13,663 bases of DNA from positions 1 to 13,663 of the forward strand of contig JAEOTS010000159.1 of the NCBI GenBank assembly GCA_016839745.1, given 5' to 3'. This document shows, piece by piece, positions 1-13,663 of this stretch (position 1 is the stretch's first letter; each line of letters starts with the position of its first letter). Source of the stretch: Promethearchaeota archaeon. Its GTDB lineage: Archaea; Asgardarchaeota; Lokiarchaeia; Sigyniarchaeales; SOKP01. Position numbers and translations under genes: made by a program. The notes beneath the pieces were generated by a model. That model saw only the letters and a list, made by a program, of their open reading frames with translations, searched no databases and had not been told where the DNA came from.

Positions 1-1225
1 CTTTAAATTCTTTTATCTTTAAATTTCCTAATTTATTTGCAAGAGTATTTGCACATTCATGGGCACAAACTAAACCTTCTAGTAAAGAGTTACTCGCTAA
101 TCGATTTGCACCATGCAATCCTGTACAAGTAGATTCTCCAATTACATACAGGTTTTTCACTTTGGTAGATCCATCAATTTTCGTTAATACACCCCCACAA
201 CAATAATGCGCTGCTGGAACAACAGGAATAGGTTCTTGAGTAATATCTATGTTAAAATTTTGGCAGGCGTCATATACTCCTGGAAAGTGACTTCTAATAA
301 AATCTGAACTCCTATATGAAGCTATATCTAAATAAACATAATCATCTCCTGATTTTTTAAGTTCAGCATCAATTGCTCTAGATACAATATCCCGTGGAGC
401 TAATTCTTTAGCGGGATGATATTCTTGCATAAACTCATGTCCGCTTATGTCTTTAAGAACAGCTCCCTCACCTCTCATGGCTTCGGTAATTAATAGTGAT
501 TTTGCATATGGATGATATAAGCATGTTGGATGAAATTGATAAAACTCCATGTTTGCAATTATAGCTCCTGCCCGGTAAGCCATAGCAATCCCATCTCCTG
601 ACGCCACATCAGGATTTGTTGTATAAAGATAAATTTTCCCTGCTCCACCCGTCGCCAAAACTGTTACTTTAGCTGCTATATTATGTATCTCCTCATTTTC
701 TTGATCTAGAACATAAGCTCCATCACACCTAAAATTAGCTGAAAACAAATTAATTGCACACCAATATTCCTTTATTTGAATATTATGGTGTCTTTTTACT
801 TCTTCAATCAGTTGCTTTTCTACATTCTGGCCTGTTAAATCATTGACGTGTAAGATTCTTCTTTCAGAATGACCCCCTTCCTTTCCCAGATCGTATTCAC
901 CATTCTCACCCCGGTTAAACTCAACTCCTAGATCAATTAACTCTTTTATCCTTTCTGGCGCTTGAGTTATAATTTTTCTAACAACCACTTCATTGCATAA
1001 TCCATCTCCTGCAATTAAGGTATCTTTAATATGGTTTTCAAAACTATCGTTTCCATTCCACACACAAGCAATACCTCCTTGAGCATAAAATGTATTAGAT
1101 TCTTTGAGGCTCTCCTTAGTAATTAAAAATATTTCTTGATCTGGTATTAATTTCGCTAGCTTTATTGCCAATGATAATCCGGAGATTCCACCTCCAATTA
1201 TTAAAATATCAGTTTTAATCTTCAA
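1..1225 (-). CDS. nadB: L-aspartate oxidase (NAD biosynthesis), partial; 3' end lies beyond the left edge of the window
   Basis: Translated by hand from TTG at 1225, preceded by GGAG: MKIKTDILIIGGGISGL (FAD GxGxxG), SNTFYAQGGIA, EGGHSERRILH, and near the edge GLHGANRLASNSLLEGLV. These are NadB motifs. Not in the ORF track because no stop lies in the window. Confidence 0.95.
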   Translation of the reverse strand, partial: MKIKTDILIIGGGISGLSLAIKLAKLIPDQEIFLITKESLKESNTFYAQGGIACVWNGNDSFENHIKDTLIAGDGLCNEVVVRKIITQAPERIKELIDLGVEFNRGENGEYDLGKEGGHSERRILHVNDLTGQNVEKQLIEEVKRHHNIQIKEYWCAINLFSANFRCDGAYVLDQENEEIHNIAAKVTVLATGGAGKIYLYTTNPDVASGDGIAMAYRAGAIIANMEFYQFHPTCLYHPYAKSLLITEAMRGEGAVLKDISGHEFMQEYHPAKELAPRDIVSRAIDAELKKSGDDYVYLDIASYRSSDFIRSHFPGVYDACQNFNIDITQEPIPVVPAAHYCCGGVLTKIDGSTKVKNLYVIGESTCTGLHGANRLASNSLLEGLVCAHECANTLANKLGNLKIKEFK

Positions 1226-1309
1226 AGAGCTCCAAAATTTCCTAATTATTATTATAAATATATTTTTAATATCCTTAATATAATTGACAATTAATAGTTT
1301 TTTCCTAAA
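1069..1309. repeat. Direct repeat copy 1 (nadB first 52 codons plus upstream region); partner at 13361..13603
   Basis: Manual alignment: 1069..1225 vs 13361..13517 gives 143/157 identical, ungapped. 1267..1309 vs 13561..13603 gives 39/43. The ~41-43 nt between the two blocks are diverged. Confidence 0.95.
1267..1309 (-). promoter_or_regulatory. Putative nadB promoter/operator block
   Basis: Conserved (39/43) between the repeat copies while the adjacent non-coding DNA has diverged. The minus strand reads AAAAAACTATTAAT (BRE/TATA-like). Contains the palindrome TAATTG-A-CAATTA (1281..1293). Confidence 0.5.
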
Positions 1310-1317
1310 TGATAAAT

Positions 1318-1446
1318 TTTTAATTCATTAATATGCTCTTGAACCATTTCAGCATTTTGCACTTGTTATAATTGGTTAAACAAATTTAAACTTTCTTCAA
1401 AATTAATCATAGCATTATGATAATCTCCAGATAATTCTTTTTCCAT
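1318..1446 (-). pseudogene. Remnant of the C-terminus of a tetratricopeptide-repeat (TPR) protein
   Basis: Minus frame reads MEKELSGDYHNAMINFEESLNLFNQL*QVQNAEMVQEHINELK. This matches the TPR pattern G-x-Y-x-x-A-x-x-x-F/Y-x-x-A/S-L plus a capping helix, with an in-frame TAA at 1366..1368. Confidence 0.5.
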
Positions 1447-1527
1447 AATATTTATTCCCTGAAATTCTCAATCCAAATTTATTGATGATTTACTTTTTTT
1501 TTAAAAAAGAATTAGCTTTTTTGGAAT

Positions 1528-1541
1528 AAAAAGCTTAAATA
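1528..1541 (+). promoter_or_regulatory. Archaeal BRE/TATA-like promoter upstream of kdgK
   Basis: AAAAAGC-TTAAATA about 80 nt upstream of the ATG at 1624. A similar AAAAAAGC-TTTATAAA precedes the DMT gene. The AT-rich background limits specificity. Confidence 0.4.
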
Positions 1542-1623
1542 TTTCAATATATCATCACAAATAATTAATTATTACAAAAAAAACCATAAATTCAAGATTA
1601 AAAAGCTCAGAGAGAGATTCATA

Positions 1624-2661
1624 ATGAGCGGAAAAGTTGTTACTTTTGGAGAAATAATGCTTAGACTTTCCCCCCCTAATTTTAAACGATTTATCCAAAC
1701 TCGTTCTTTTGATGTAATATATGGTGGAGGTGAAGCTAATGTTGCAGTATCATTGGCTAATTATGGAATTCCTGTTAATTATATAACTAAATTGCCGAAT
1801 AATGAAATCGGTGATGCTTGTATTCAATTCCTTAGACAATTTGGTGTGAATACGAAGAATATAGTGAGAGGAGGGAATAGAATTGGAATTTATTATCTCG
1901 AAATGGGATCTTCTATTCGACCAAGCAAAGTCATTTATGATAGAGCTAATTCTGCCATTTCAGAAGCGAATTCTCAAGATTTTAATTGGCACGAGATATT
2001 TAAAGGAGTAACCTGGTTTCATTGGACGGGTATTACACCAGCAATTTCTCAAAATTTAGCAAATATCTGTCGTGAAGCTGTAAAGGTGGCAAAAGAAAAA
2101 GATATCACAATTTCATGTGATCTAAATTACCGGAGTAAACTTTGGAAATATGGAAAAGAACCTAAAGATATTATGCCCGAATTAGTAAAGTTTTGTGATG
2201 TAGCGATAGGAAATGAAGAGGATGCTGAGAAAGTTTTAGGTATCAAAGCTCCAGATACAGATGTGACGACGGGAAAGTTAGATGCCGCAAATTTTAGATT
2301 TGTAGTTGAAGAAATTGTAAAGCAATATCCTAATCTGAAAAAAGTAGCAATAACTCTAAGGGGGTCAATTTCTGCTAGCAATAATACTTGGTCAGCAGTT
2401 CTCTACGATGGAATTAAAATGTATATTGGTCCTCAATATGAAATAACACCGATCGTTGATAGAGTAGGTGGAGGTGATTCTTTCATGGGAGGCTTAATTT
2501 ATGGATTACTCACATACAAAGAAGATCTTCAAAATGCACTTAACTTTGCTGTTGCTGCTTCCTGTCTAAAACATACGATCTTAGGCGATTTTAATTTAGT
2601 TTCGGTGGATGAAGTTCTTAAGTTAATGGATGGAGATAACTCTGGACGTGTTTCAAGATAA
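1624..2661 (+). CDS. kdgK: 2-dehydro-3-deoxygluconokinase (PfkB family sugar kinase)
   Basis: KVVTFGEIMLRLSPP, YGGGEANVAVSLA, YDRANSA, DLNYRSKLW, GNEED, DRVGGGDSF (PfkB catalytic motif) and the C-terminal GRVSR typical of long-form KdgK. eda lies in the same cluster. Confidence 0.9.
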   Translation: MSGKVVTFGEIMLRLSPPNFKRFIQTRSFDVIYGGGEANVAVSLANYGIPVNYITKLPNNEIGDACIQFLRQFGVNTKNIVRGGNRIGIYYLEMGSSIRPSKVIYDRANSAISEANSQDFNWHEIFKGVTWFHWTGITPAISQNLANICREAVKVAKEKDITISCDLNYRSKLWKYGKEPKDIMPELVKFCDVAIGNEEDAEKVLGIKAPDTDVTTGKLDAANFRFVVEEIVKQYPNLKKVAITLRGSISASNNTWSAVLYDGIKMYIGPQYEITPIVDRVGGGDSFMGGLIYGLLTYKEDLQNALNFAVAASCLKHTILGDFNLVSVDEVLKLMDGDNSGRVSR

Positions 2662-2674
2662 TTAATCCAAGAGG

Positions 2675-3493
2675 ATGAATAGGATAATGAATAAAAATCA
2701 AAAGTTAATTATTACTGCTACTACAGCAAATTCATGGATATATCCTGAAGTTAAGAATTGGCCACAGACAATTGATCAATTAGTCGATGATGTAGTGGCG
2801 TGTTATAAGGCTGGTGCTGCGATTGTCCATGTTCATCTCCCAAGGGGAGAAGAAGTTGAAACTGTGAGGCGTATACGGGAAAATTGTGATGTTCTTATCC
2901 AAGCTGGTATGTCGAGTGAATCAATCCCTAAAAGAAAAGGTGATTTTGATGCCAAACCAGATATGATGTCTGTTATATTAAATCACCATGCTGAACATTT
3001 TACTCAAGTAACTGTAGATGTTTTACATCCTTTAGAGGAATTAGAAGAATATTGTGTAAAATGTAAAGCAGCTAATATCCGACCAGAATGGGAAGTTTGG
3101 CAACATGGTTCCTATTGGAATTTAAATTATTTAATAGAAAAAGGATTATTAGAATGGGCAAAACCTCATATCTTAACATTATTTTTTAATTGGCCTGGTG
3201 GAACATGGAGTCCTGCTAATTTCGAAGAATATATGCATAGAAAGAGATATATACCACCTAATTCTGTCCATACAGTAAGTGTAATGGGTGAGGATCAAAT
3301 GAAACTTTTAGTCTTTGTTCTTACGCATGGTGGAAACATAAGAATTGGTACTGAAGATTATCCTTTTATAAGAAAAGGAGTAACAGCAAAAAATAATGCC
3401 GAAATTGTTAAGAATTATGTGAGTATTAGTAAATATCTAGGTCGTGAAACAGCAGATCCATCTGAAGCTCGTAAAATATTAGGTCTGAAATGA
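2675..3493 (+). CDS. Beta-keto acid cleavage enzyme (BKACE / DUF849 / Kce family)
   Basis: KLIITATTA, CYKAGAAIVHVH (Zn HxH), IRPEWEVW, GGNIRIGTED (third Zn ligand Glu), GRETADPSEARKILGL. The start may instead be the ATG at 2687. Confidence 0.9.
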   Translation: MNRIMNKNQKLIITATTANSWIYPEVKNWPQTIDQLVDDVVACYKAGAAIVHVHLPRGEEVETVRRIRENCDVLIQAGMSSESIPKRKGDFDAKPDMMSVILNHHAEHFTQVTVDVLHPLEELEEYCVKCKAANIRPEWEVWQHGSYWNLNYLIEKGLLEWAKPHILTLFFNWPGGTWSPANFEEYMHRKRYIPPNSVHTVSVMGEDQMKLLVFVLTHGGNIRIGTEDYPFIRKGVTAKNNAEIVKNYVSISKYLGRETADPSEARKILGLK

Positions 3494-3536
3494 TTTCTTT
3501 ATTCTAACTTATAATAAACTTTAAAAAAATAGGAAT

Positions 3537-3647
3537 TTGAAATTAAAAGATGAATTAGCCATAATAAAAGGAGCAGGACTAGGGGAATCTACTACTCTAC
3601 TATTTATTAAAAATGGAAAAAGGCAAAAAAGCTTTATAAACACTTAA
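3537..3647 (+). pseudogene. Truncated N-terminal remnant of a short-chain dehydrogenase (SDR)
   Basis: TTG-started 36-codon frame MKLKDELAIIKGAG--LGESTTLLFIKNGK aligns with the SDR at 10568 (MKLKGKVAIITGAGAGIGEATALLFAKEGAK). The glycine motif is damaged by a 2-codon deletion and similarity ends near 3620. Confidence 0.7.
3625..3640 (+). promoter_or_regulatory. Archaeal BRE/TATA-like promoter upstream of the DMT gene
   Basis: AAAAAAGC-TTTATAAA about 65 nt upstream of 3706. Confidence 0.45.
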
Positions 3648-3705
3648 CGCAAAGGTATTATTATCTTATCTTCATCTTATTTTAAACAAAAACTAAAAGA
3701 AGTGT

Positions 3706-4605
3706 TTGGAAAAAATGAATGGTTCATTTTATTTATTAGGTGTTTTCTTAGCTATCTTATCTGGAAGTATAAATAATATAGGTTTAGTGTTACAAAAAAA
3801 GGTAGTTAATGAAGTATCCCCTGAAGCAAAATTCTTTAGAAGTTTAGTGAAAAAGCCCCTTTGGATCACAGGGTTATTAATGGAGCTAGCAATAGGTTCA
3901 GTTTTTTTCATGATTGCTCAAATTTATATTGGTCCTGCCTTAATTCCAGGCTTGATGGCATTCGGTTTAATTTTTCTCGCTATAGGATCTGTTAAAATTG
4001 TGGGTGAAACTTTAAAAAAGGAAGAAATGATCGGAATTATTTTAATGATTATAGCGATCTTTTTATTAGGTCTTTCTGAACTAAGTATAGATATTGCTGG
4101 CATAAACATTTTAGCTATTGATCTTGTTCTAAACATGACAATCTTTACGATTGTTTTATTTTTAGGTTCCTTGGTATGTGAGATTTTACAGAGAAAAGTT
4201 GAAAAATTAAAAGGAATATTATTAGCAATATCCTCAGGATTCCAATTTTCCTTAACTAATTTTTGGATCGCACCTCTAATGGCGGTAATTGCTCATGTTT
4301 TTGGAGGAAATGCTACTTTAAGCGAATTTTTCTTATTTCTAGCTTGTGCAGTTATTTTAATTGTAGCAAGTATCCTAGGGATAATGAAAATTTCACAATC
4401 ATTTCGAGTAGCCAACGCTAGTCGAATGATTCCTATTCAACAAGTACCTATACAAGTTACACCAATAATAGCATACTTTTTTGTTTTTACGCTAACGCCT
4501 CCTACAATCTTTCCTATCATTTATGTGATTTTTGGGGTTTCTTTAATCCTATTAAGCTCGTTTCTGCTAGCAAAAAGGCAAGCACAATTAGAAGCTATAA
4601 AGTAA
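3706..4605 (+). CDS. DMT-superfamily (NIPA-like) multi-pass membrane transporter
   Basis: About 9 hydrophobic segments. N-terminal GVFLAILSGSINNIGLVLQKK and KKPLWITGLLM...GPALIPGL resemble NIPA/DMT proteins. Start is TTG 3706 or ATG 3715. Substrate unknown. Confidence 0.7.
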   Translation: MEKMNGSFYLLGVFLAILSGSINNIGLVLQKKVVNEVSPEAKFFRSLVKKPLWITGLLMELAIGSVFFMIAQIYIGPALIPGLMAFGLIFLAIGSVKIVGETLKKEEMIGIILMIIAIFLLGLSELSIDIAGINILAIDLVLNMTIFTIVLFLGSLVCEILQRKVEKLKGILLAISSGFQFSLTNFWIAPLMAVIAHVFGGNATLSEFFLFLACAVILIVASILGIMKISQSFRVANASRMIPIQQVPIQVTPIIAYFFVFTLTPPTIFPIIYVIFGVSLILLSSFLLAKRQAQLEAIK

Positions 4606-4615
4606 GGTCATAAAA

Positions 4616-5410
4616 GTGGCAAAAATAATATTCTTCCAACCACATCCGGACGACTTAGAAATAAACTGTGGGCATCTTATCCATTACCTTGCAATAAAAA
4701 GTAAAAATAACCATATTATTAAGATCGCTTCAATCACTAAAGGTGAATATGGCCTTCCTAGTGCTCAATATGATAAATTTAAAGGTGATTTGCTTGCAAA
4801 AGTCAGAACACGAGAATTGTACAATGCTCAAAGCATTCACGGAATACCTCCAGAAAATATACACTTTTTTGGATATGTTGATGGTTTAATAGAATTTACC
4901 AGAGATTTTGTAGAAGAGATTGCTGAATATTTGAAGAAGGAAAAACCTGATGTAATTTTCGCACCAGAAGCAATTTATACGTCTTATTACCACATGGATC
5001 ATGTAAATACAGGTAGGGCAATATATTACTGTATTCACAACAAATTAATCAACTTTGCTCCAACACTTTATTTTTACTCAACTTTAAGCCCAAATTTTTT
5101 CTTCGGTTTTAAGAAAGAAGGTTTTAATTTAATCGATCAACTACTAGCTTGCCATAAAACACAATTTTGGCTTATTAATTACGTAAAATGGACTTATAAA
5201 CCAAAAACACGATTAGCAGGAAGAAAATTAAGAGGTTGGAAATATGCCGAGAAATATCGAAGAGTTTATTTTCATAAAAATAATGAAAATAAGAATAAAC
5301 CATCATTGATCGTTAAAATGTTAAGCCATTGGTATTCGAGCATGCCTTGGTTTAAAGCTAAATACCCACAAGATGTGTTAGAACAGCTTAAAAAAAAAGG
5401 AAAAATCTAA
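4616..5410 (+). CDS. PIG-L/LmbE-family metal-dependent de-N-acetylase
   Basis: FFQPHPDDLE (PHxDD), TKGEYG, RTREL, KPDVIFAP, HMDH (HxDH), CHKTQF, YAEKY. GTG start 10 nt after the DMT stop. Confidence 0.9.
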   Translation: MAKIIFFQPHPDDLEINCGHLIHYLAIKSKNNHIIKIASITKGEYGLPSAQYDKFKGDLLAKVRTRELYNAQSIHGIPPENIHFFGYVDGLIEFTRDFVEEIAEYLKKEKPDVIFAPEAIYTSYYHMDHVNTGRAIYYCIHNKLINFAPTLYFYSTLSPNFFFGFKKEGFNLIDQLLACHKTQFWLINYVKWTYKPKTRLAGRKLRGWKYAEKYRRVYFHKNNENKNKPSLIVKMLSHWYSSMPWFKAKYPQDVLEQLKKKGKI

Positions 5411-5560
5411 TTATTTAGGAAAAATATTAATAATGTTTTTAGTGAAATTAAGTATAATAAAACTATATATAGAACAAAAGCAAAATAACCTCAATATATA
5501 ACAAAGAATTAAATTATTAATTTGATAATTTAACAACTAAAAGAAAAGAGGTGTATTTTA

Positions 5561-5902
5561 TTGGCGACTCCTGAAGAAATTAAAGAAGCCTTAAATAAAT
5601 GGGTAAAAGTTTTAGACGATCCTGAGATTGCGGATGAATTTGAAGGATTTAATAAAACCATGCAATTTGAATTTTCAGACTTAAATTATAAAATAAAAAT
5701 GATTTTTGAAAATAAAACAGCAAGATTAGAGGAAGGTTTTGATGAAAATGCTGAAATGGGTTTAGAAATTAATTCTGCTCTTTTTGTAGGAATTGCTACC
5801 GGTGAAGTTGATCCAATGGAAGCGTTTATGGAAGGAGAACTTAAAACTAAGGGCGATATGAACTCATTACAGAAATTAGAAGTCTTCATGGATATTGAAT
5901 AG
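5561..5902 (+). CDS. Stand-alone SCP2 sterol/lipid-binding domain protein
   Basis: LFVGIATGEVDPMEAFMEGELKTKGDMNSLQKL is the typical SCP2 C-terminal motif. TTG start with a GAGGTG RBS 7 nt upstream. Confidence 0.9.
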   Translation: MATPEEIKEALNKWVKVLDDPEIADEFEGFNKTMQFEFSDLNYKIKMIFENKTARLEEGFDENAEMGLEINSALFVGIATGEVDPMEAFMEGELKTKGDMNSLQKLEVFMDIE

Positions 5903-5918
5903 CGAAGTTTATTAAGGA

Positions 5919-5946
5919 TTTTTTTCAAATACTGTTTTTTTTGTTT
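5919..5946 (+). terminator. Possible archaeal oligo-T terminator after SCP2
   Basis: Two runs of 7-8 T within ~45 nt of the stop codon. Confidence 0.3.
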
Positions 5947-6071
5947 GGGAAAATAAGAAGATTTGAAAGAGATAATATGAATTAATTTAAAAATCAAAAA
6001 TTTAGGAATATTGAAAATAAGTATTTTTATAAGAAAAAATATAAAAAAAATTTATTCTGGTATGATGAGAA

Positions 6072-7196
6072 ATGGAACCAATTGGTTTTAATAAAGAAAG
6101 AACACGCAATGTTTTAGAAAAGCACGATATAGATGTGCTAATTGCATCTACTCCCGTAAATGTTTTTTACTTAACTGGTTTACCAACATTACATGTAGCT
6201 CCAAATCCTATTTTATATGTTTTATATAATCAATACCCTAGTTTGTCTTTAGTACGGAGAGACGGTGAGGAAAGTCTGATAACGTGGATTACTTTTCGTA
6301 GCGTAGATAAATTTTCATGGGTAAGTGATATTCATGGAATAGTATCTCCTAAAGGTGCTATGGTATCAGTATCTGATAAGATTGAAGAATGGGGTTTATC
6401 AAATAGAAAGATAGGATATGAGTCTCTTATGCCTTCTTATCAATCTGAATATCTAAGGATTAGATTTCCAAGTGCTACATTTATCAATGGCGATCAAGCT
6501 TTTTTAGATATGCGTTTAATTAAATCTGAAGAGGAGGTAAAACGAATAAAAAAATCAACAGAAATTTCTGAAAAAGCTATAATGAAGATGATTGAAGCAT
6601 CTTATGAAGGAATTACTGATTTAGAATTATTACAAATCGCTCGGAGAACAATCGTTAATGAAGGTGCAGAAGGATGGGATCATTTAACAATGAATTTGGG
6701 ACCATCCGATCCTGAAGCACCAGGAGTAGGAACTATTCTGAAAGCAGGAGATCTTAATAGATTTGACATTGGAACTATTTGGAAAGGATATGTCTCAGAT
6801 ATTAGTCGAGAGTTAGTGATAGGACAGATACCTGAAGGAGCTGAGGAAGTTATGAATAGATTGATAAAAGTTCAAGAATTCTGTGAAGAGAATATTCACC
6901 CTGATTTAAATATGAAAGAATTGTATAATAATGCTATTAAATTTCATAAATCTTTAACAAAGAAGGGGAGAGCCTTTGTAACGGGTCATAGCATCGGGCT
7001 AGAATGTGAGGAAACTCATTTATTTAGCCCAATGAAAAAGTTAGATAGGCCTTTTGAAGAGAACATGGTTCTTGATATTGAGGTCTGGCAGAATTTTAAA
7101 AATCAAGGATTAGTAGGCATTGAAGATTGTTATAGAATAACTAATAATGGGTGTGAGAGGCTCTCAAGTTTAGATAAGAATATTTTTGTTAAATGA
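6072..7196 (+). CDS. M24 (Xaa-Pro peptidase/creatinase-fold) metallohydrolase, divergent
   Basis: Creatinase-like N domain (NVFYLTG) and MRLIKSEEE linker. Metal ligands: FDIG (D), SDISR (D), GHSIG (H), DIEV (E), GIED (E). Confidence 0.85.
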   Translation: MEPIGFNKERTRNVLEKHDIDVLIASTPVNVFYLTGLPTLHVAPNPILYVLYNQYPSLSLVRRDGEESLITWITFRSVDKFSWVSDIHGIVSPKGAMVSVSDKIEEWGLSNRKIGYESLMPSYQSEYLRIRFPSATFINGDQAFLDMRLIKSEEEVKRIKKSTEISEKAIMKMIEASYEGITDLELLQIARRTIVNEGAEGWDHLTMNLGPSDPEAPGVGTILKAGDLNRFDIGTIWKGYVSDISRELVIGQIPEGAEEVMNRLIKVQEFCEENIHPDLNMKELYNNAIKFHKSLTKKGRAFVTGHSIGLECEETHLFSPMKKLDRPFEENMVLDIEVWQNFKNQGLVGIEDCYRITNNGCERLSSLDKNIFVK

Positions 7197-7255
7197 AAAG
7201 AAAACCTTAAAGCCATAACCTATATTAATTAATAAAATTATTGGAGTATAATTAA

Positions 7256-8392
7256 ATGAGTGATTTTGTAAAGTTTGGAATAATAGGAGCGGGTTCTGCT
7301 GTTTGGCGCTATCATAAGTTAGGCACCAAAAATAATCCACAAGTCAAATTTATTTCGGGATACGACATTAACGAGAAGAAATTAGCTAAAGCTGCTAAAT
7401 ATTCAAAGTTAGAACCTTTTTCGAAGTTAGATGATTTTTTAAAAAGTGATATTGATGCTGTTATGGTTTTAGTACCACACTATCTACACAGTGATATAGT
7501 TATTGCTGTAGCTGAGGCTGGAAAACATGTTATCTGTGAAAAACCTATGGCGACCACGCTTGAGGAATGTGATGAGATGATCGCAGCAACAAAAAAAGCT
7601 GGTATAAAATTTATGATTGCGGAGAATCATCGATTCCTACCGGCTCATCAATTTATAAAAGATGCCTTAGAGCGTGGATTCATAGGAGATGTATTTCTTG
7701 GGCGAACTTACGAAGGTGCCTATGCTAGTTCACAATTTTTTGACATTAATGATTGGAGTTTCACTTATTCTAAAGGAGGTGGTGGTGTAGTTTCAGATCA
7801 AGGAGTTCACAAATTTACTATGCTGAATTGGTTTCTTGGTGAGGTAGATTCAGCTCAATGTTGGTTAAGTAAAACTTTGAAATCTCCCCCCAATAAAGGA
7901 GAAGATACTGCCATAATTCTATTGCGCTATAAATGTGGAGCTACTGTGACTGTTGATATTTCCTCTAGTACAGTGCATCCGCTTACGAATAAAACAGAAT
8001 TGCATGGAACTAAGGGTACTATTTTTGAAGATCATGATTGGGAAAGACCAGTTAAACTATTTTCGTCACATCCTGAGGCTGAGGTTAAGGGAGAGTTTTA
8101 TAGTCCGAAAATTGAACATGGACCATTTCCTGACTATTATAAAATTTCTATGGGTCATGAAGATGCATATTTTGCTGAATGTATTTTAGAAGATAAGAAA
8201 CCAGAATTTACACCAGAAGAGGCAAGGCAAGGTGTTGCAGTGGTTCTCTTAGCATATCTATCTGCCAAAAACGGAAGAATGACTTCGATGGATGAATTAA
8301 TGGAAATTTATAAAAAAGAAGGTACAAGAAGCATATTAGAAGGACTTGGAGAAGTAACACAAAAAAATTATGAAAATCTAAATTGGGATTAA
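7256..8392 (+). CDS. Gfo/Idh/MocA-family NAD(P)-dependent oxidoreductase
   Basis: FGIIGAG, VPHYLH, AGKHVICEKPMA, GGGVVSDQGVH; GGAG RBS upstream. Confidence 0.92.
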   Translation: MSDFVKFGIIGAGSAVWRYHKLGTKNNPQVKFISGYDINEKKLAKAAKYSKLEPFSKLDDFLKSDIDAVMVLVPHYLHSDIVIAVAEAGKHVICEKPMATTLEECDEMIAATKKAGIKFMIAENHRFLPAHQFIKDALERGFIGDVFLGRTYEGAYASSQFFDINDWSFTYSKGGGGVVSDQGVHKFTMLNWFLGEVDSAQCWLSKTLKSPPNKGEDTAIILLRYKCGATVTVDISSSTVHPLTNKTELHGTKGTIFEDHDWERPVKLFSSHPEAEVKGEFYSPKIEHGPFPDYYKISMGHEDAYFAECILEDKKPEFTPEEARQGVAVVLLAYLSAKNGRMTSMDELMEIYKKEGTRSILEGLGEVTQKNYENLNWD

Positions 8393-8489
8393 AAAATAAT
8401 AATAGAATCTTTTTTTCTTTTTAATAATATAATTCTATTCCTATAATTGACTAAGTAGTTAAAGAATATGTTAATTGTTTAAAATAAAT

Positions 8490-10421
8490 TTAAATTTGTG
8501 TAATTTTTACTGTATGGATTCCATCTTCTTTAATAGTTATAGATACTAATTGATTTTCTTTATCTTTTTCTATTTCACCCTCAGAAATACTTATATCATA
8601 ACCGTTTGGATATTGAATTCTTGGAACAAAAAGAATTGTTGAAGCTTTTATAGAAGTATCGCCATCAAACTTAAAATAAAAGCATCCCTCCTTTATATCA
8701 AATTCCATTTTTAATGGGATCCCTGTACATCGAATGAAATGTGGGCGGCAGAAGCCCTTAATTGCTCTTCCACCACTATTTATATCATCTGGATCAACTT
8801 GTTGATCTTTACTAAAAATTGATAAATCTTCCAAATTCCACAAATCTCCCCATTCGTTAATATTATCTGCAGTATAATTCCATTGTAATGCATGTAATAA
8901 ATTAGCATCTAATGCATTATAATAATTGTTTAGTGCTTTTGTATGTGTTTTCCAAGCTTCATCTGGTTCAGTTTTTAACTTCTCATAAGCTTCTTTTTTA
9001 TTTAAATCATAAGGCAGTCCAAATTCTCCGATTATTGTTGGAATTCCTCCAAAAAAAGAAGTAGAGTAATCTTTAATATTTAATAATTGTGAGATAAACA
9101 TTTGTTGTACATTTTTTTTACCAATAACTGGATTTCCTGTAATAAGATTATAATTAGCTTTAAGCATTGCTCTTTTCGTACCAGTCGTAGCTACATCGTA
9201 CCAGTGGGCAGCATGTGCGCTATTAGGCGGTATTTCTAATTCAAATAACTCTCCTTTCATCACCCTTTCCATAGGTCCTGTAAAAAATATTATTGCTTTT
9301 GAAAATTCACTTCGGATAGCTTCAGTATAGCTTTTTAGGAAAGGAGACAAATAATCTCTATAAAAATCAATTTTTTCTCCATTTTTATAAATGAAATAGT
9401 CGTTTTTCAAAATTTTTGGATTTCCGTCCTTATCTAATCCCCATACACCTTCTTTTTTCCAGATATCTTCAAATCCTTCTAACCAACATGATATTTTCAT
9501 CTGATTTAGCTCTTCTTTTCTAGTTTCTTTAATACCAAATCTCTTAACTTCTTGATATCCAATAGTTCTATTATATCCTGCTCCAGTAAGCATAGCATCT
9601 ATTGGTGTAAAGACATAGCCTATTACTTCAGATTTTCCTTCCCATTCACTTCCATCTACAAATCTGCCAATCCAACCTTCGGGTGGTTCATTTAATATAT
9701 CAAATCCTAATATATATGGATTATCTTTTATCCTTATGGCTATTTGCTTTATTGTATCAATAAAATGGTTTTGTAAGTAATCCTGAGCGTTAATTCCATC
9801 AACCATACATGAAGGAGCAAATTGTTTTCCCCCAAAGAATAAAGTCCACATCATTCCATTCGCAAATCTATAAGTATTCCCCATCCAATGCATTGGAAGA
9901 TATTTTGTAAGGTCATCAGGGTCATATCTGTGTTGCATTACAAATGCTGCCTCTGAGCTTTCAAATTTAGTATAATCTAAACCAACTTTTTCAAATGTCC
10001 AACCAGGGGCTCCATCTCCTCCTGTCATCCTACTCCAAACATCTTGATGAGGATCTATAAATATGTAAAAGCTATATTCTCCAGCAATCTTTAAAATTTC
10101 TTCTAAATAATCAAGATATTCTTTATCATATTTTTTTGGTCCACTATGTTCAATTGCTTCCCATGTAACTAAAAATCTTAGACAATTAAAGCCCCAGTGT
10201 TTTAATCGTGAAAAATGTTTATCTGCATCTTTTAAAGGGAATGGACGACCAACAAAAGAAACATTTTTGTGATCACTAAAATCAGTTTTTATGTGTGTTG
10301 CCCCATTGGGAGAATAAGGGATTTTTGAGCTTCCTCCCAAATTTACACCTCTAAGTAGTACTGTTCGACCTTTTTCATCAACAAACCGCTCATTATAAAT
10401 TCTCAATGTCATTTGAATCAA
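8490..10421 (-). CDS. Glycoside hydrolase family 5, endoglycoceramidase-related (EGCrP / steryl-beta-glucosidase-like), with C-terminal beta-sandwich
   Basis: LRGVNLGGSSKIP, FVGRPFPL, WGFNCLRFLVTWEAIEH, IDPHQDVWSRMTGGDGAPGW, acid/base NEP, nucleophile IIGEFG, WNLEDLSIFS, GGRA. No signal peptide evident. Confidence 0.9.
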   Translation of the reverse strand: MIQMTLRIYNERFVDEKGRTVLLRGVNLGGSSKIPYSPNGATHIKTDFSDHKNVSFVGRPFPLKDADKHFSRLKHWGFNCLRFLVTWEAIEHSGPKKYDKEYLDYLEEILKIAGEYSFYIFIDPHQDVWSRMTGGDGAPGWTFEKVGLDYTKFESSEAAFVMQHRYDPDDLTKYLPMHWMGNTYRFANGMMWTLFFGGKQFAPSCMVDGINAQDYLQNHFIDTIKQIAIRIKDNPYILGFDILNEPPEGWIGRFVDGSEWEGKSEVIGYVFTPIDAMLTGAGYNRTIGYQEVKRFGIKETRKEELNQMKISCWLEGFEDIWKKEGVWGLDKDGNPKILKNDYFIYKNGEKIDFYRDYLSPFLKSYTEAIRSEFSKAIIFFTGPMERVMKGELFELEIPPNSAHAAHWYDVATTGTKRAMLKANYNLITGNPVIGKKNVQQMFISQLLNIKDYSTSFFGGIPTIIGEFGLPYDLNKKEAYEKLKTEPDEAWKTHTKALNNYYNALDANLLHALQWNYTADNINEWGDLWNLEDLSIFSKDQQVDPDDINSGGRAIKGFCRPHFIRCTGIPLKMEFDIKEGCFYFKFDGDTSIKASTILFVPRIQYPNGYDISISEGEIEKDKENQLVSITIKEDGIHTVKITQI

Positions 10422-10468
10422 ATTAGTATTAATTCTATTTAAGAGTTCTTATCAGTAAATTACTCTCT

Positions 10469-10489
10469 TTTCATTAAAGTTTTATGAAA
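10469..10489. promoter_or_regulatory. Near-perfect 21-bp palindrome between the divergent GH5 and SDR genes
   Basis: TTTCATTAAA-G-TTTTATGAAA, 9/10 arm positions complementary. Confidence 0.35.
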
Positions 10490-10567
10490 TAAAAATCAAA
10501 TTATATTTAACTTTTATAATTTTTATCCACATCTATTCTAAATTTAATCTAACAATGATAAAAAAAA

Positions 10568-11317
10568 ATGAAACTAAAAGGGAAGGTTGCTATAATAACG
10601 GGAGCTGGAGCAGGTATTGGTGAAGCAACTGCTCTTCTTTTTGCGAAAGAAGGTGCAAAAATTTGTTGTAATTCATTAACCGAGTCAGCTAAGAATGTCG
10701 TAGGAAAAATTAAATCCTCCGGAGAAGATGCAATATTTGTTCAAGCAGATATTTCTGTGGAAGAGGAAGCGAATCGTATAATTGAAAAAACCATAGAATT
10801 TTATGGCAAAATTGATATTTTGTTTAATAATGCAGGAATTGTACTTGGTGGAGCAATCGATACAATGTCTACAGAAGACTGGGATAGAACTATGGCTGTC
10901 AATGTACGTGGTATATACTTGGTAACGAAATACGCGATTCCCTATTTACGAAAAACGCGAGGTGTAATTATAAATAATTCTTCTTCAGTTGCATTTAAAG
11001 GTGTAAAAGATAGAGCTGCATACACAGCGTCAAAAGGAGCAGTTCTATCAATGACTAGAGCTATGGCTGCAGATTATCTTGAAGATAAAATCAGAGTAAA
11101 TGCAATATGTCCTGGAACTACAGATACACTATCATTGACAGAAAGGATTAAAAGTAGGGGAGGAAATTTTGAAAAAGTAAGGCAACAGTATATCAGTCGC
11201 CAGAGATTAGGAAGGCTTGGAACACCTGAAGAAATAGCAGAAGGAGTACTATTTCTTACTGTGAATGAATTCTGTACCGGTGTAAGCCTCTTAGTTGATG
11301 GAGGTATGACAATGTAA
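10568..11317 (+). CDS. Short-chain dehydrogenase/reductase, resembling the BDH2 / 2-keto-3-deoxy-L-fuconate dehydrogenase group
   Basis: TGAGAGIG, NNAG, YTASK. C-terminal NAICPGTTDTLSLTERI...RQQYISRQRLGRLGTPEEIA resembles BDH2/KDF dehydrogenases; the subfamily call is less certain than the SDR call. Confidence 0.9.
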   Translation: MKLKGKVAIITGAGAGIGEATALLFAKEGAKICCNSLTESAKNVVGKIKSSGEDAIFVQADISVEEEANRIIEKTIEFYGKIDILFNNAGIVLGGAIDTMSTEDWDRTMAVNVRGIYLVTKYAIPYLRKTRGVIINNSSSVAFKGVKDRAAYTASKGAVLSMTRAMAADYLEDKIRVNAICPGTTDTLSLTERIKSRGGNFEKVRQQYISRQRLGRLGTPEEIAEGVLFLTVNEFCTGVSLLVDGGMTM

Positions 11318-11360
11318 TAATTAAATAAGTAAAATTATTTTGAAATCTGGAGTGATAAAT

Positions 11361-11658
11361 ATGGTTAAACATATAGGGATTGTTGCTTGCAGTGCAGAAG
11401 CTTAGGAAAAGTTGTTTAAATACAGGCACCCATAGATAATGATAGAATAATATTTGAAGAGTTAATAGTATCTTTTCAGAAGAATCTCGGTGAGTTTATA
11501 ACAAAGTTATACAAAAGTTAGAAAAGAATGGTTGTAATGCTATTGTTCTTGGTTGTACGGAAATTCCTTTACTCATAGATCCGAATGATTGTTCATTACC
11601 TATTTTAGATTTTGCTAGATTACTTGCAAGTGCAGCAATTAAAAAGGCTATCGAATAA
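11361..11658 (+). pseudogene. Aspartate/glutamate racemase family pseudogene (large internal deletion, stops, frameshift)
   Basis: GGAGTGA RBS then MVKHIGIVACSAEA* (TAG 11403). Later DRIIFEEL, a frameshift, then VNSIFSEESR*VYNKVIQKLEKNGCNAIVLGCTEIPLLIDPNDCSLPILDFARLLASAAIKKAIE*. LGCTEIP is the racemase second catalytic Cys motif. Confidence 0.85.
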
Positions 11659-11675
11659 AAAATAAAAAAAGATTA

Positions 11676-12452
11676 TTATTGAGTTGTCCAGCCACCATCA
11701 ATTCTTAGATCTGCACCCGTTATGTAGGAAGATTCATCCGTCGCTAAATAGAGTATTCCCGTAGCTATTTCTTCTGGTGTTGCCCAACGTCCCATTACAC
11801 CTTCTTGTTCAAATTCTTTTTTAACTTCTTCATATGTTACCCCTCTATCTCTCGCTTGTTTCGCAACATCACCTTGTAGCATTGGTGTGTCTGTAGCACC
11901 AGGACTTACACTATTCACCCGAACATTATAAGGTGCCAAATCTAACGCTAAGGCTCTTGTATAACCTAGCACACCTGCTTTTGTGGAACAATAATTAGCA
12001 TGGGCAACTTGACCAATATGAGCAGCTACAGAAGCTAATGTAATTATAGACCCTGATTTTTGCTTTTTAAAATATGGTACAGCATATTTACATGTATAAT
12101 GAGTTCCTTTTAGATTAACGTTAATCAATAAATCATAATCTTCATCTGGAAAAGTTTCTATTGGTCCAACTCGTACCACTCCCGCATTTACAATTAAAAC
12201 ATCAATTCTTCCATATTTTTCAATAGTTGAATCGATCATATTCTTAACTTCGTCTGGATTCCTTACATCTACTTTCATGATAGTGGTTTTATCTTTTCTA
12301 TCTTCAATCAATTCAAGAGTTTCTTTTAAGCCTTCTTCACTTATATCTGAGAGGATTTGAATTGCACCTTCTTTCGCAAATAAGATTGCGGTAGATCTTC
12401 CAATTCCGGAAGCAGCTCCAGTTAATACAACAATTTTATCTTTAACTCTCAA
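11676..12452 (-). CDS. Short-chain dehydrogenase/reductase (probably NAD-preferring)
   Basis: TGAASGIG, Asp after beta-2 (LSDIS), VNAG, YCSTK, VNSVSPGATDT, DGG. TTG start with GGGAG RBS. Confidence 0.92.
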   Translation of the reverse strand: MRVKDKIVVLTGAASGIGRSTAILFAKEGAIQILSDISEEGLKETLELIEDRKDKTTIMKVDVRNPDEVKNMIDSTIEKYGRIDVLIVNAGVVRVGPIETFPDEDYDLLINVNLKGTHYTCKYAVPYFKKQKSGSIITLASVAAHIGQVAHANYCSTKAGVLGYTRALALDLAPYNVRVNSVSPGATDTPMLQGDVAKQARDRGVTYEEVKKEFEQEGVMGRWATPEEIATGILYLATDESSYITGADLRIDGGWTTQ

Positions 12453-12547
12453 TCTAGCTCCCTTTTTTATAAAATGTTAAAATTTTATATATTTCTTATC
12501 TAATAAATGATCCGATATAAACAGATTTCATAATAAAAATTTAATTC

Positions 12548-12643
12548 TTAAATATAATCATAATATTCCTCAGTGATTTCTGGATCATCCAACTTTTTTG
12601 CCCATTTTCCTAATGCTTGTTTTAATTCTTTTGCAGTTATCAT
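12548..12643 (-). pseudogene. Truncated paralog of the SCP2 gene (31 aa)
   Basis: GAGGTG RBS plus MITAKELKQALGKWAKKLDDPEITEEYYDYI*; 16/31 identical to the N-terminus of the SCP2 at 5561 (MATPEEIKEALNKWVKVLDDPEIADEFEGFN). Confidence 0.8.
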
Positions 12644-12717
12644 CTATTTTCACCTCAAAAGAATTAAATTTACGAATGTCTAAAGCCCTGTGAAGATAAT
12701 TTTTGGCGATGGTATCC

Positions 12718-13353
12718 TTATCCAATTTCTGAATGAATTAATGAGATTGCCGTTTTGGTTAATTTTTTAATCTCCTCAAATTGTCCAGTAGAAATCAAAT
12801 CTTTTTTTACTATCCAACTTCCTCCACACGCAAGAACATTACTTAGTTTCAAATAATCAATTAAAGAATCAATATTTATTCCACCAGTTGGTACAAATCT
12901 CATTTCTGGATATGGTCCTGCCAAACTTTTAAGCATCATAGTTCCTCCAGAAAGATTAGCTGGGAAAAATTTAACGATTTTTAAACCTTTATCAAGCGCC
13001 CATTCCACTATTGTAGGTGTATTAACGCCGGGAATAATAGGAATTTTGTTAATTATACAATAATCAACAATTTTCGGATTAAATCCTGGTGTAACAATAA
13101 ATTTTGCTCCTGTCTTTATAGCATCCTTCACTTGATCAACTTTTAGAACTGTACCCGCTCCTACTAATATATCTGGTAATTCAATAGTTAATCTCTTAAT
13201 AGATTCTGTCGTAGCTTCAGTTCTAAATGTTACTTCAATGATAGGAAGTCCTGCTTCAATTAGTGCTTTCCCTAAAGGAACTGCATCATCCACGCTATTT
13301 ATAACTGCAACAGGTATAAGTTTTAATTCTTTTATTCTTTTATAAACATCCAT
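12718..13353 (-). CDS. eda: KDPG/KHG aldolase (bacterial-type class I)
   Basis: IEVTFRT (catalytic Glu/Arg), VGAGTVL, GAKFIVTPG, VKFFPA (Schiff-base Lys), FVPTGGI, ACGGSW. Confidence 0.95.
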   Translation of the reverse strand: MDVYKRIKELKLIPVAVINSVDDAVPLGKALIEAGLPIIEVTFRTEATTESIKRLTIELPDILVGAGTVLKVDQVKDAIKTGAKFIVTPGFNPKIVDYCIINKIPIIPGVNTPTIVEWALDKGLKIVKFFPANLSGGTMMLKSLAGPYPEMRFVPTGGINIDSLIDYLKLSNVLACGGSWIVKKDLISTGQFEEIKKLTKTAISLIHSEIG

Positions 13354-13517
13354 TTTTTGACAATACCTCCTTGAGCATGAAATGTATTAGATTCTTTGAG
13401 GCTCTCCTTAGTAATTAAAACTATTTCTTGATCTGGTATTATTTTTGCTAGTTTTATTGCCAATGATAATCCGGAGATACCTCCTCCGACTAGTAAAATA
13501 TTTGTCTTAATTTTCAA
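13332..13517 (-). pseudogene. nadB: Truncated duplicate of the nadB 5' end (52 NadB codons plus a 9-residue unrelated tail overlapping the eda start)
   Basis: 46/52 aa identical to the nadB starting at 1225. Homology stops abruptly after AQGGI at 13361. Confidence 0.9.
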
Positions 13518-13603
13518 AGAACTCCTATGGTCTCCAATTTTTTCATATTAATATTTAAATTAATATCCTAAATATAAATGACAATTAATAATTTTTTCTT
13601 AAA
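13361..13603. repeat. Direct repeat copy 2 (nadB 5' end plus upstream region)
   Basis: Same orientation as 1069..1309, offset 12,292-12,294 bp. Confidence 0.95.
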
Positions 13604-13663
13604 GTGATTAATTAAATAAGTATTATCCCTTTTAGAAATTAACGATATCTTTTTTAATATTTC

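Follow-up and report, generated by a model that had tools for sequence, protein, structure and literature searches.

A catabolic gene island inserted with duplication of the nadB 5′ region in Asgard archaea

How can a block of catabolic genes come to lie between two copies of the start of a housekeeping gene if it encodes no enzyme for its own movement? The question is raised by contig JAEOTS010000159.1 of assembly GCA_016839745.1, assigned to a Promethearchaeota archaeon of the Lokiarchaeia. The entire contig, 13,663 bp long and called C139 below, was analysed and is referred to as the window. It belongs to a 3.5-Mb metagenome-assembled genome (MAG; G000), which is 89% complete and 5.8% contaminated. 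At its left end the window carries nadB, the gene for L-aspartate oxidase, and close to its right end a truncated second copy of the nadB start (nadB′). Between the two lies a 12.05-kb insert with 11 catabolic (metabolic or transport) genes, here called the island. An earlier note on this DNA had proposed that an integrase-free cluster entered at nadB by homologous recombination or through a recombinase acting in trans. Our analysis points to a recombination-driven insertion-duplication in which a homeologous nadB 5′ end was imported, a circular and a linear form of the incoming DNA both being compatible with the data; on balance we consider this account the probable one.

The island is bracketed by a direct repeat of about 250 bp (window 1069–1318 and 13361–~13613), whose copies are 87–91% identical. 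The repeat finder resolved it into block D1 (1069–1250 and 13361–13542; 182 nt, 87%, spacing 12,292 nt) and block D3 (1266–1309 and 13560–13603; 44 nt, 91%, spacing 12,294 nt), with an offset of 2 nt between them. In the coding part of the repeat, 143 of 157 nucleotides are identical in the alignment (91%). Together with the 91% identity of the 44-nt upstream block, this bears out the flanking repeat reported before. Homology starts abruptly at 1069/13361 and fades out at ~1309–1320. The segment occurs twice, and only twice, in the 3.5-Mb MAG.

The left copy (L, 1069..1318) comprises codons 1–52 of nadB and ~93 nt of upstream DNA; of the two copies it is the divergent one, and the functional gene begins with it. 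The coding part of the right copy (R), the nadB′ stub, occupies 13361..13517 on the minus strand. It belongs to a 61-codon open reading frame (ORF; 13332..13517); 52 of these codons resemble nadB (Pfam FAD_binding_2), and the open frame continues to 13332 inside the eda gene. The upstream region of R (13518..13613, minus strand) is of the resident type: it holds a TATA box, TTTAAATA, at 13552–13559 and the 44-nt block at 13560–13603, and is 98% identical to the corresponding DNA of the related genome G019. Resident intergenic DNA starts at 13614 and runs to the window end at 13663. It leads to a gene for a low-molecular-weight (LMW) phosphotyrosine phosphatase and is collinear past the repeat with G019, G013, G046 and G058.

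Of the earlier description, a 52-codon stub and an apparently intact nadB, the stub stands as stated, while the intactness of nadB rests on relatives. In the window, nadB (2..1225, minus strand; Pfam FAD_binding_2, 5e-89; TTG start at 1225) is cut by the contig end after its first 408 codons. The orthologue in G046 is full length, scoring 728 bits on NCBIfam NF006567 (cutoff 629) and also above the cutoff of TIGR00551.

Was there ever a site without the island? Three genomes have an empty site (G019:C90, G013:C6 and G054:C19), as the earlier note had predicted. Window 1–1318 and 13361–13663 both map there to a single nadB 5′ region, which joins directly to DNA continuing the right end of the window, with the LMW phosphotyrosine phosphatase as the right-hand gene. 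Both repeat copies fall onto 10305–10574 of the G019 locus (L033), and likewise onto one copy in G013 and G054. Viewed from an occupied site, the flanks of the long G046 contig overlap by ~265 bp at the empty sites.

A survey of all 42 genomes in the genus found the segment present twice in G000 (on C139) and G046 only. The same architecture occurs on the 20.6-kb contig G046:C80, whose collinear flanks are long; its island measures 3.9 kb and corresponds to window 1319–3493, 10412–11464 and 12664–13360. G058:C19 is collinear with window 951–13663 at ~96% identity and extends 0.8 kb further on the right. A scan of JGI metagenomes with the conserved 44-nt block yielded two contigs identical to the G046 type, and SMTZ1_10034121, a 3.6-kb island variant with both repeat copies. 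No relative examined has the cluster beside nadB without the stub, an arrangement that the earlier note had taken as a sign of a local short duplication. The locus thus follows the pattern of a flexible (additive) island, with three empty genomes, three to four occupied loci at a fixed site, and cargo of 12, 3.9 and 3.6 kb. A real insertion polymorphism is well supported.

An assembly or binning artefact, with the right copy a strain chimera that the assembler joined to eda, is hardly credible against this background. It could appeal to a short contig, present as a whole in a MAG with 5.8% contamination, that ends 60 nt past the right copy, and to a second nadB (on contig C15) and a second cluster (on C4) in the same MAG. 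However, the same eda|nadB′ joint recurs in independent assemblies (G046:C80, G058:C19 and SMTZ1_10034121) with lineage-specific substitutions and indels, and it connects non-homologous sequences, so that no shared k-mer could have caused it. Mis-assembly of the right copy, the other objection raised in advance, was ruled out by this recurrence.

The duplicate genes in the MAG bear on a different question, the host. C139 is most probably a mis-binned contig of a co-occurring sister lineage, because the MAG contains an nadB locus of its own that differs from that on C139, as well as another copy of the cluster. The former (C15, 2757–4339) is an empty site, 92% identical to G014/G015 and ~75% to C139. 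The latter (C4:46381–57709) is collinear with the whole cluster, lacks eda, and has 70–83% nucleotide identity. Flanks resembling G019 were found on no G000 contig other than C139. The situation in G058 is alike: the island contig C19 is accompanied by the MAG's own nadB on C59, which is 72% identical. Mis-binning affects the host assignment and leaves the structure of the island untouched.

Which of the two repeat copies is the resident one? The empty-site genome G019 separates them. On the left side, identity to G019 is 94–98% in the nadB body and declines through the L copy to 91% (1069–1150), 85% (1151–1225) and 78% in the upstream part, which also has a 19-nt deletion. This upstream part is 74–79% identical to the empty-site genomes. 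For the same three segments, the R copy shows 89%, 92% and 98%. Identity between L and R drops from left to right, from 96% (1069–1150) to 85% and 78%. R is resident-like on the right and L resident-like on the left. This pattern is compatible with reciprocal donor/resident chimeras left by single-crossover integration of a circle, and a double crossover or gene conversion would give it as well. At third codon positions, identity to G019 is 88.5% for R and 90.7% for the nadB body, as against 76.9% for the 52 codons of L. This excess divergence of L is significant against G019 (Fisher p = 0.006), not against G054 or G013. At 4–5 sites L keeps the outgroup state, while R and the empty genomes share a derived state; the coding sites informative for the origin of L are two fixed and about three partial ones.

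The stub has an excess of first- and second-position changes (p = 0.002–0.05). In G058 it is frameshifted and contains several stops, and in G046 its GxGxxG motif is broken. In every carrier, the L copy has remained intact. Closest to the empty-site genomes, and marked by the first- and second-position excess, the frameshift and the broken motif, the stub represents the resident 5′ end, displaced and decaying as a pseudogene. The left copy was likely imported.

The same data bear on an alternative in which foreign DNA was joined illegitimately in the nadB 5′ region in situ, about 250 bp of resident DNA being copied to both sides, and L diverged later as its promoter was remodelled beside the new DNA. 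The geometry agrees with the published definition of insertion with long target duplication (repeats >30 bp, insert <20 kb, no mobility genes, an empty-site comparator; PMC2853133). L and R are 96% identical over 1069–1150, and a donor with an L-type promoter was not found. Yet the upstream parts of L and R differ by 22%, while R and G019 differ by 2%, so that a roughly tenfold asymmetry of rates would be needed. Moreover, the outgroup states that L holds at 4–5 sites are derived in R and the empty genomes, and the third positions of L are more diverged than those of the gene body. We regard this explanation as unlikely.

What has become of the displaced gene start? The host being archaeal, with promoters of the TATA/B recognition element type, the promoter search was aimed at TATA-box elements and sigma-70 logic was dropped. 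The ATG codon of eda lies 7 nt from the end of the nadB homology, and the sequence GGAGGT, corresponding to NadB codons ~50–52, is found 11 nt upstream of it. The stub frame terminates 22 nt inside eda. The TATA box TTTAAATA at −42 to −35 before the TTG start of the stub is the sole promoter-like element upstream of eda. We infer that the duplicated promoter of the right copy reads into eda, which would amount to promoter capture. The linkage of eda to the cluster appears specific to this island, because eda stands alone in 18 other Asgard loci.

The 44-nt block, kept in both copies and in the more distant G010, contains a near-perfect dyad, AATTGACAATT; in L (block 1266..1309) the dyad is found at 1282. 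The block may be an operator or promoter element common to nadB and the divergent phosphatase gene. The TTG start of nadB (1223–1225; 13515–13517 in the stub) was present in every lineage examined; around the GxGxxG motif, neither ATG nor GTG occurs in frame.

How did the island enter? The illegitimate joint, which connects the position 7 nt before the eda ATG to nadB codon 52, was formed a single time, because it is identical in all carriers. We infer that entry took place by a single crossover of a circle or by one homologous and one illegitimate crossover of linear DNA. The sequence alone does not separate a circle with a single crossover, linear homology-facilitated illegitimate recombination (HFIR) and in-situ long target duplication. 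As Campbell integration predicts, the intact target gene (full length in G046) and a truncated copy in direct orientation flank the insert. Of the entry route proposed before, entry with duplication of the 5′ end and promoter and the action of homologous recombination at the locus are upheld by the empty sites and by the mosaic identity described below. The specific Campbell route is not; no circle junction came to light in JGI metagenomes, IMG/VR or PLSDB.

We favour the following course of events. In a single clade of Loki-type Asgard archaea, recombination would have spliced a catabolic cassette between nadB and the LMW phosphatase gene upstream of it, without a recombinase in the island. 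Together with the insert would have come a homeologous copy of the nadB start and promoter. This imported left copy would now head the working nadB, while the original start was pushed to the far end of the insert and is decaying as a 52-codon pseudogene. The TATA-box promoter of the displaced start would now read into eda, a gene that lacks upstream DNA of its own. Afterwards, exchange between lineages and homologous recombination via nadB and the right flank reshuffled the island, and internal deletions trimmed it. Later spread into empty sites could have involved an ordinary double crossover with one of its end points within the repeat, which would give the observed identity gradients equally well as a circle.

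In ORFs of at least 50 aa between the repeats, no recombinase or transposase domain was detected with Pfam, NCBIfam and PHROGs, and the island can still be called integrase-free. It contains no tRNA and no match to Rfam families. At its edges the repeat finder revealed no terminal inverted repeats, the inverted pairs found being weak and internal. A 299-aa hypothetical ORF considered as a hidden recombinase was ruled out; it is a polytopic membrane protein instead.

These results are relevant to site-specific integration of an element similar to e14 or phage 21 that carried a replacement gene end, with an integrase acting in trans or lost and a core at the sharp left edge of the repeat. The geometry resembles icd – e14 – icdC, where an intact gene with an element-borne end faces a displaced pseudogene end (PMC13626634). 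The sharp boundary at codon 52 is followed by identical tracts of 18, 41 and 20 nt, and tyrosine integrases are encoded in Asgard genomes (PMC11529989). Against this stand 12 kb without an integrase or a remnant of one, in which all ORFs are metabolic or transport genes. The cargo is also collinear with ordinary chromosomal clusters of the genus such as that on G000:C4, and searches of JGI metagenomes and IMG/VR revealed no excised form. We judge this possibility quite improbable.

Is the island a recent gain, or are the empty sites losses? The identical tracts between L and R (18, 41, 20 and 26 nt) would allow pop-out of the island; in that case it might leave as the circle of about 12.3 kb that the earlier note proposed. 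It is conceivable, if somewhat doubtful, that the island was ancestral to the whole five-lineage clade and that the three empty genomes arose as pop-outs by recombination between L and R. The empty sites have the composition expected of such a crossover, with an L-side gene body and R-type upstream DNA; tracts of 18–41 nt would be available for it. The island is visibly decaying in G046 and SMTZ1, and the tree does not resolve the relationship of the carriers. On the other hand, the outgroup G010 already has upstream DNA of the R/empty type, so that a site which was never occupied looks alike. An L-type scar such as the 19-nt deletion was present at no empty site examined in the genus genomes and JGI metagenomes. 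Furthermore, this scenario concerns the direction only and still needs the original insertion-duplication event.

The occupied loci reveal how the cargo changes. SMTZ1_10034121 retains remnants of two genes that are complete in the window, the first 29 codons of the short-chain dehydrogenase gene SDR2 and the first 44 codons of the GH5 glycoside hydrolase gene (L130 1130–1216 and 2297–2428). The end points of the deletions differ between SMTZ1 and G046 despite 98.5–99.8% identity of the DNA they have in common. Collinear clusters elsewhere in the genus, for example on G000:C4, have the full 12-kb gene order. The short islands of 3.6 and 3.9 kb are independent deletion derivatives of an ancestor of the 12-kb type, because of the SDR2 and GH5 remnants, the different end points and the full gene order elsewhere. 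The loss of cargo is rapid within one population.

Identity at third codon positions between the window and G046 varies strongly by gene, which indicates that homologous recombination acts on the locus. With the nadB body as reference (84%), the kinase gene (pfkB) does not deviate (81.5%, p = 0.42), the BKACE gene is less similar (66%, p = 3e-7), and SDR1 together with eda is more similar (95%, with 96% for the stub; p = 2e-7). The BKACE gene at 2675–3493 is 80% identical at the amino acid level to that at L052:6391–7209, and suggests allelic replacement of that single gene inside the island. By these values the locus is a mosaic that homologous recombination between lineages has assembled. 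Inner branches of the nadB tree are unresolved, and so are the relationships of the carriers. Polyphyly of the carriers on this tree, a further candidate, was unsupported (approximately unbiased (AU) test, p = 0.21), and repeated independent gains are therefore not claimed.

Several points speak against the preferred account, a recombination-driven insertion with an imported nadB 5′ end. A clade of the window and G046 is not rejected by the AU test (p = 0.21), so that the carriers may share one vertical origin, with allele exchange afterwards. The evidence for a foreign origin of L is modest in the coding part, with 4–5 informative sites and significance against G019 only, and the divergence of its upstream part could reflect promoter remodelling after the duplication. 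A donor lineage with an L-type nadB promoter and no island was absent from the genus genomes and the JGI metagenomes. Contigs matching the conserved block in assembled JGI metagenomes and IMG/VR contained no circle junction. For a free form of the element, neither the DNA pattern nor the kinase protein had a match in IMG/VR, and the plasmid database PLSDB yielded distant bacterial sugar kinases only. The host of the window is uncertain, since C139 looks mis-binned, and the use of the duplicated promoter by eda is read from DNA sequence only.

What does the island encode? On the left, next to the L copy, a 305-nt region (1319..1623, plus strand) with TATA-like elements at −90 and −82 lies upstream of the kinase gene. 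It is present in carriers only and has no match in the empty-site genomes. The kinase gene itself (1624..2661, plus strand) codes for a pfkB-family sugar kinase of the 2-keto-3-deoxygluconate (KDG) type. It matches Pfam PfkB and also the KDG/KDGal kinase models. NCBIfam NF041633 describes a KHG/KDPG aldolase–sugar kinase fusion, and the protein reaches 541 bits against the kinase half of this model. The DNA matches of this gene in PLSDB are Bacteroidota sugar kinases only (65–72% nucleotide identity), which hints at a bacterial origin of the gene. It is followed by the gene for a BKACE-family beta-keto-acid cleavage enzyme (2675..3493, plus strand; Pfam PF05853, 1.6e-45).

Five further genes are on the plus strand. 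They encode a polytopic membrane protein, probably a transporter (3706..4605; no strong family match, a weak EamA match, at least six hydrophobic segments), a PIG-L/LmbE-family de-N-acetylase (4616..5410; Pfam PF02585, 7e-20), an SCP2-domain protein (5561..5902; Pfam PF02036), an M24 creatinase/prolidase-family hydrolase (6072..7196; Pfam PF00557 and PF01321) and a GFO/IDH/MocA oxidoreductase (7256..8392; a Pfam match, with an iolG-like match under its cutoff). The GH5 glycoside hydrolase with a GH5 C-terminal domain (8490..10421; Pfam PF00150 and PF18564) is on the minus strand. Two short-chain dehydrogenases with Pfam adh_short_C2 matches follow, SDR1 (10568..11317, plus strand) and SDR2 (11676..12452, minus strand). 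The last gene is eda, encoding KHG/KDPG aldolase (12718..13353, minus strand; Pfam PF01081; TIGR01182 with 256 bits, above cutoff).

We read the cargo as a predicted glycoside or sugar-acid catabolic cassette that would feed the KDG/KDPG route. A circular permutation of an aldolase–kinase fusion cluster was considered, the kinase matching one half of such a fusion, and found unsupported, as eda is alone in the 18 other Asgard loci and absent from collinear clusters of the C4 type. A 90-nt inverted repeat (10569–10658 and 12362–12451, 70% identity), made up of the N-terminal coding regions of both SDR paralogues, might promote inversion of the DNA between its arms. Outside the island, two LMW phosphotyrosine-phosphatase paralogues (L052:9357–9869 and L052:11623–12099) and a macro-domain gene are located upstream of nadB in all lineages of the clade, and this neighbourhood appears to be NAD/ADP-ribose-related.

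The locus provides a natural series at one site, with three empty sites, the 12-kb island, two independently shrunken versions, and a gene start at three stages of decay. It would extend the class of insertions with long target duplication to archaeal hosts and metabolic cargo. Chromosomal gene gain and loss in Asgard archaea is little understood, and every integrated element described from them so far has an integrase or a transposase. Here, ordinary homologous and illegitimate recombination without a mobility enzyme would add, rewire (by the putative promoter capture) and erode catabolic clusters. There is also a practical warning, as such islands assemble as orphan contigs and are binned into the wrong MAG. 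More speculatively, and in our opinion improbably as a general rule, metabolic cassettes of Asgard archaea may travel as ‘pop-in’ units without a recombinase. These would mimic the start and promoter of a housekeeping gene and integrate by host homologous recombination, so that the target is kept working and the displaced promoter is given to a cargo gene. If true, this would be a general, self-wiring route of cassette exchange in the archaeal relatives of eukaryotes.

Does the island belong to a known class of insertions? Integrated elements reported from Asgard archaea include Yucahu-i and the integrated mobile genetic elements of Atabeyarchaeia (PMC11529989), and HeimV1 and the aloposons (PMC8813620). 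They are likewise ~10-kb insertions, present or absent between related Asgard genomes. There they are characterized by tyrosine integrases or transposases, short att cores (11 bp) or tRNA-adjacent sites, and replication or partition genes, whereas the island has none of these. A word search of the two main papers (PMC11529989, PMC8813620) returned no mention of homologous recombination or direct repeats in either. From a transposon or composite of insertion sequences the island differs in having neither a transposase nor terminal inverted repeats, and in a duplication of ~250 bp instead of a short one.

Insertion with long target duplication is known from bacterial restriction–modification cassettes (Nobusato et al., 2000; Furuta, Abe and Kobayashi, 2010; PMC2853133), and no archaeal case passed the screen of the published survey (PMC2853133). 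In common with these insertions, the island is an insert in the range of a few kb to 20 kb that has no integrase or transposase and is flanked by direct repeats of tens to hundreds of bp aligning to a single empty-site copy; the mechanism is likewise unresolved (PMC2853133). However, the published repeats are near-identical to each other and to the target, whereas the copies at nadB are 87% identical and L is much further from the target than R, through either import or later divergence. Catabolic cargo and an Asgard archaeal host are further differences. The island fits all formal criteria of the class except the near-identity of the repeats.

HFIR is documented for bacteria with natural transformation and for conjugation in E. 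coli (e.g. PMC3240628). It is not known from archaea. A homologous anchor in nadB and one illegitimate joint would explain both the single junction shared by all carriers and the imported divergent segment. Differences from the bacterial cases are the missing archaeal record and the uncharacterized DNA uptake of Asgard archaea.

Work with suicide plasmids in bacteria and archaea makes use of Campbell-type ‘pop-in/pop-out’ of circular DNA with a gene fragment. One crossover inside a 5′ fragment yields the order seen in the window: the gene stays intact, the insert and a truncated copy follow, and the direct repeats are able to recombine out. By contrast, the island showed no circular form and neither a replication gene nor a plasmid backbone, and a natural circle would still need one illegitimate joint.

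Functionally, the arrangement icd – e14 – icdC is the closest parallel to a gene whose end was replaced and whose displaced end became a pseudogene. At E. coli icd, e14 and phage 21 keep a housekeeping gene intact through the diverged replacement end that the insert provides, the displaced resident end is a pseudogene, and loss of the insert recombines the two copies (Hill et al., 1989, summarized in PMC13626634). e14 has a site-specific integrase of its own, targets a 3′ end and excises upon SOS induction. At nadB, by contrast, the 5′ end and the promoter were replaced without a recombinase in the insert, and the promoter copy released in this way is proposed to drive a gene of the island.

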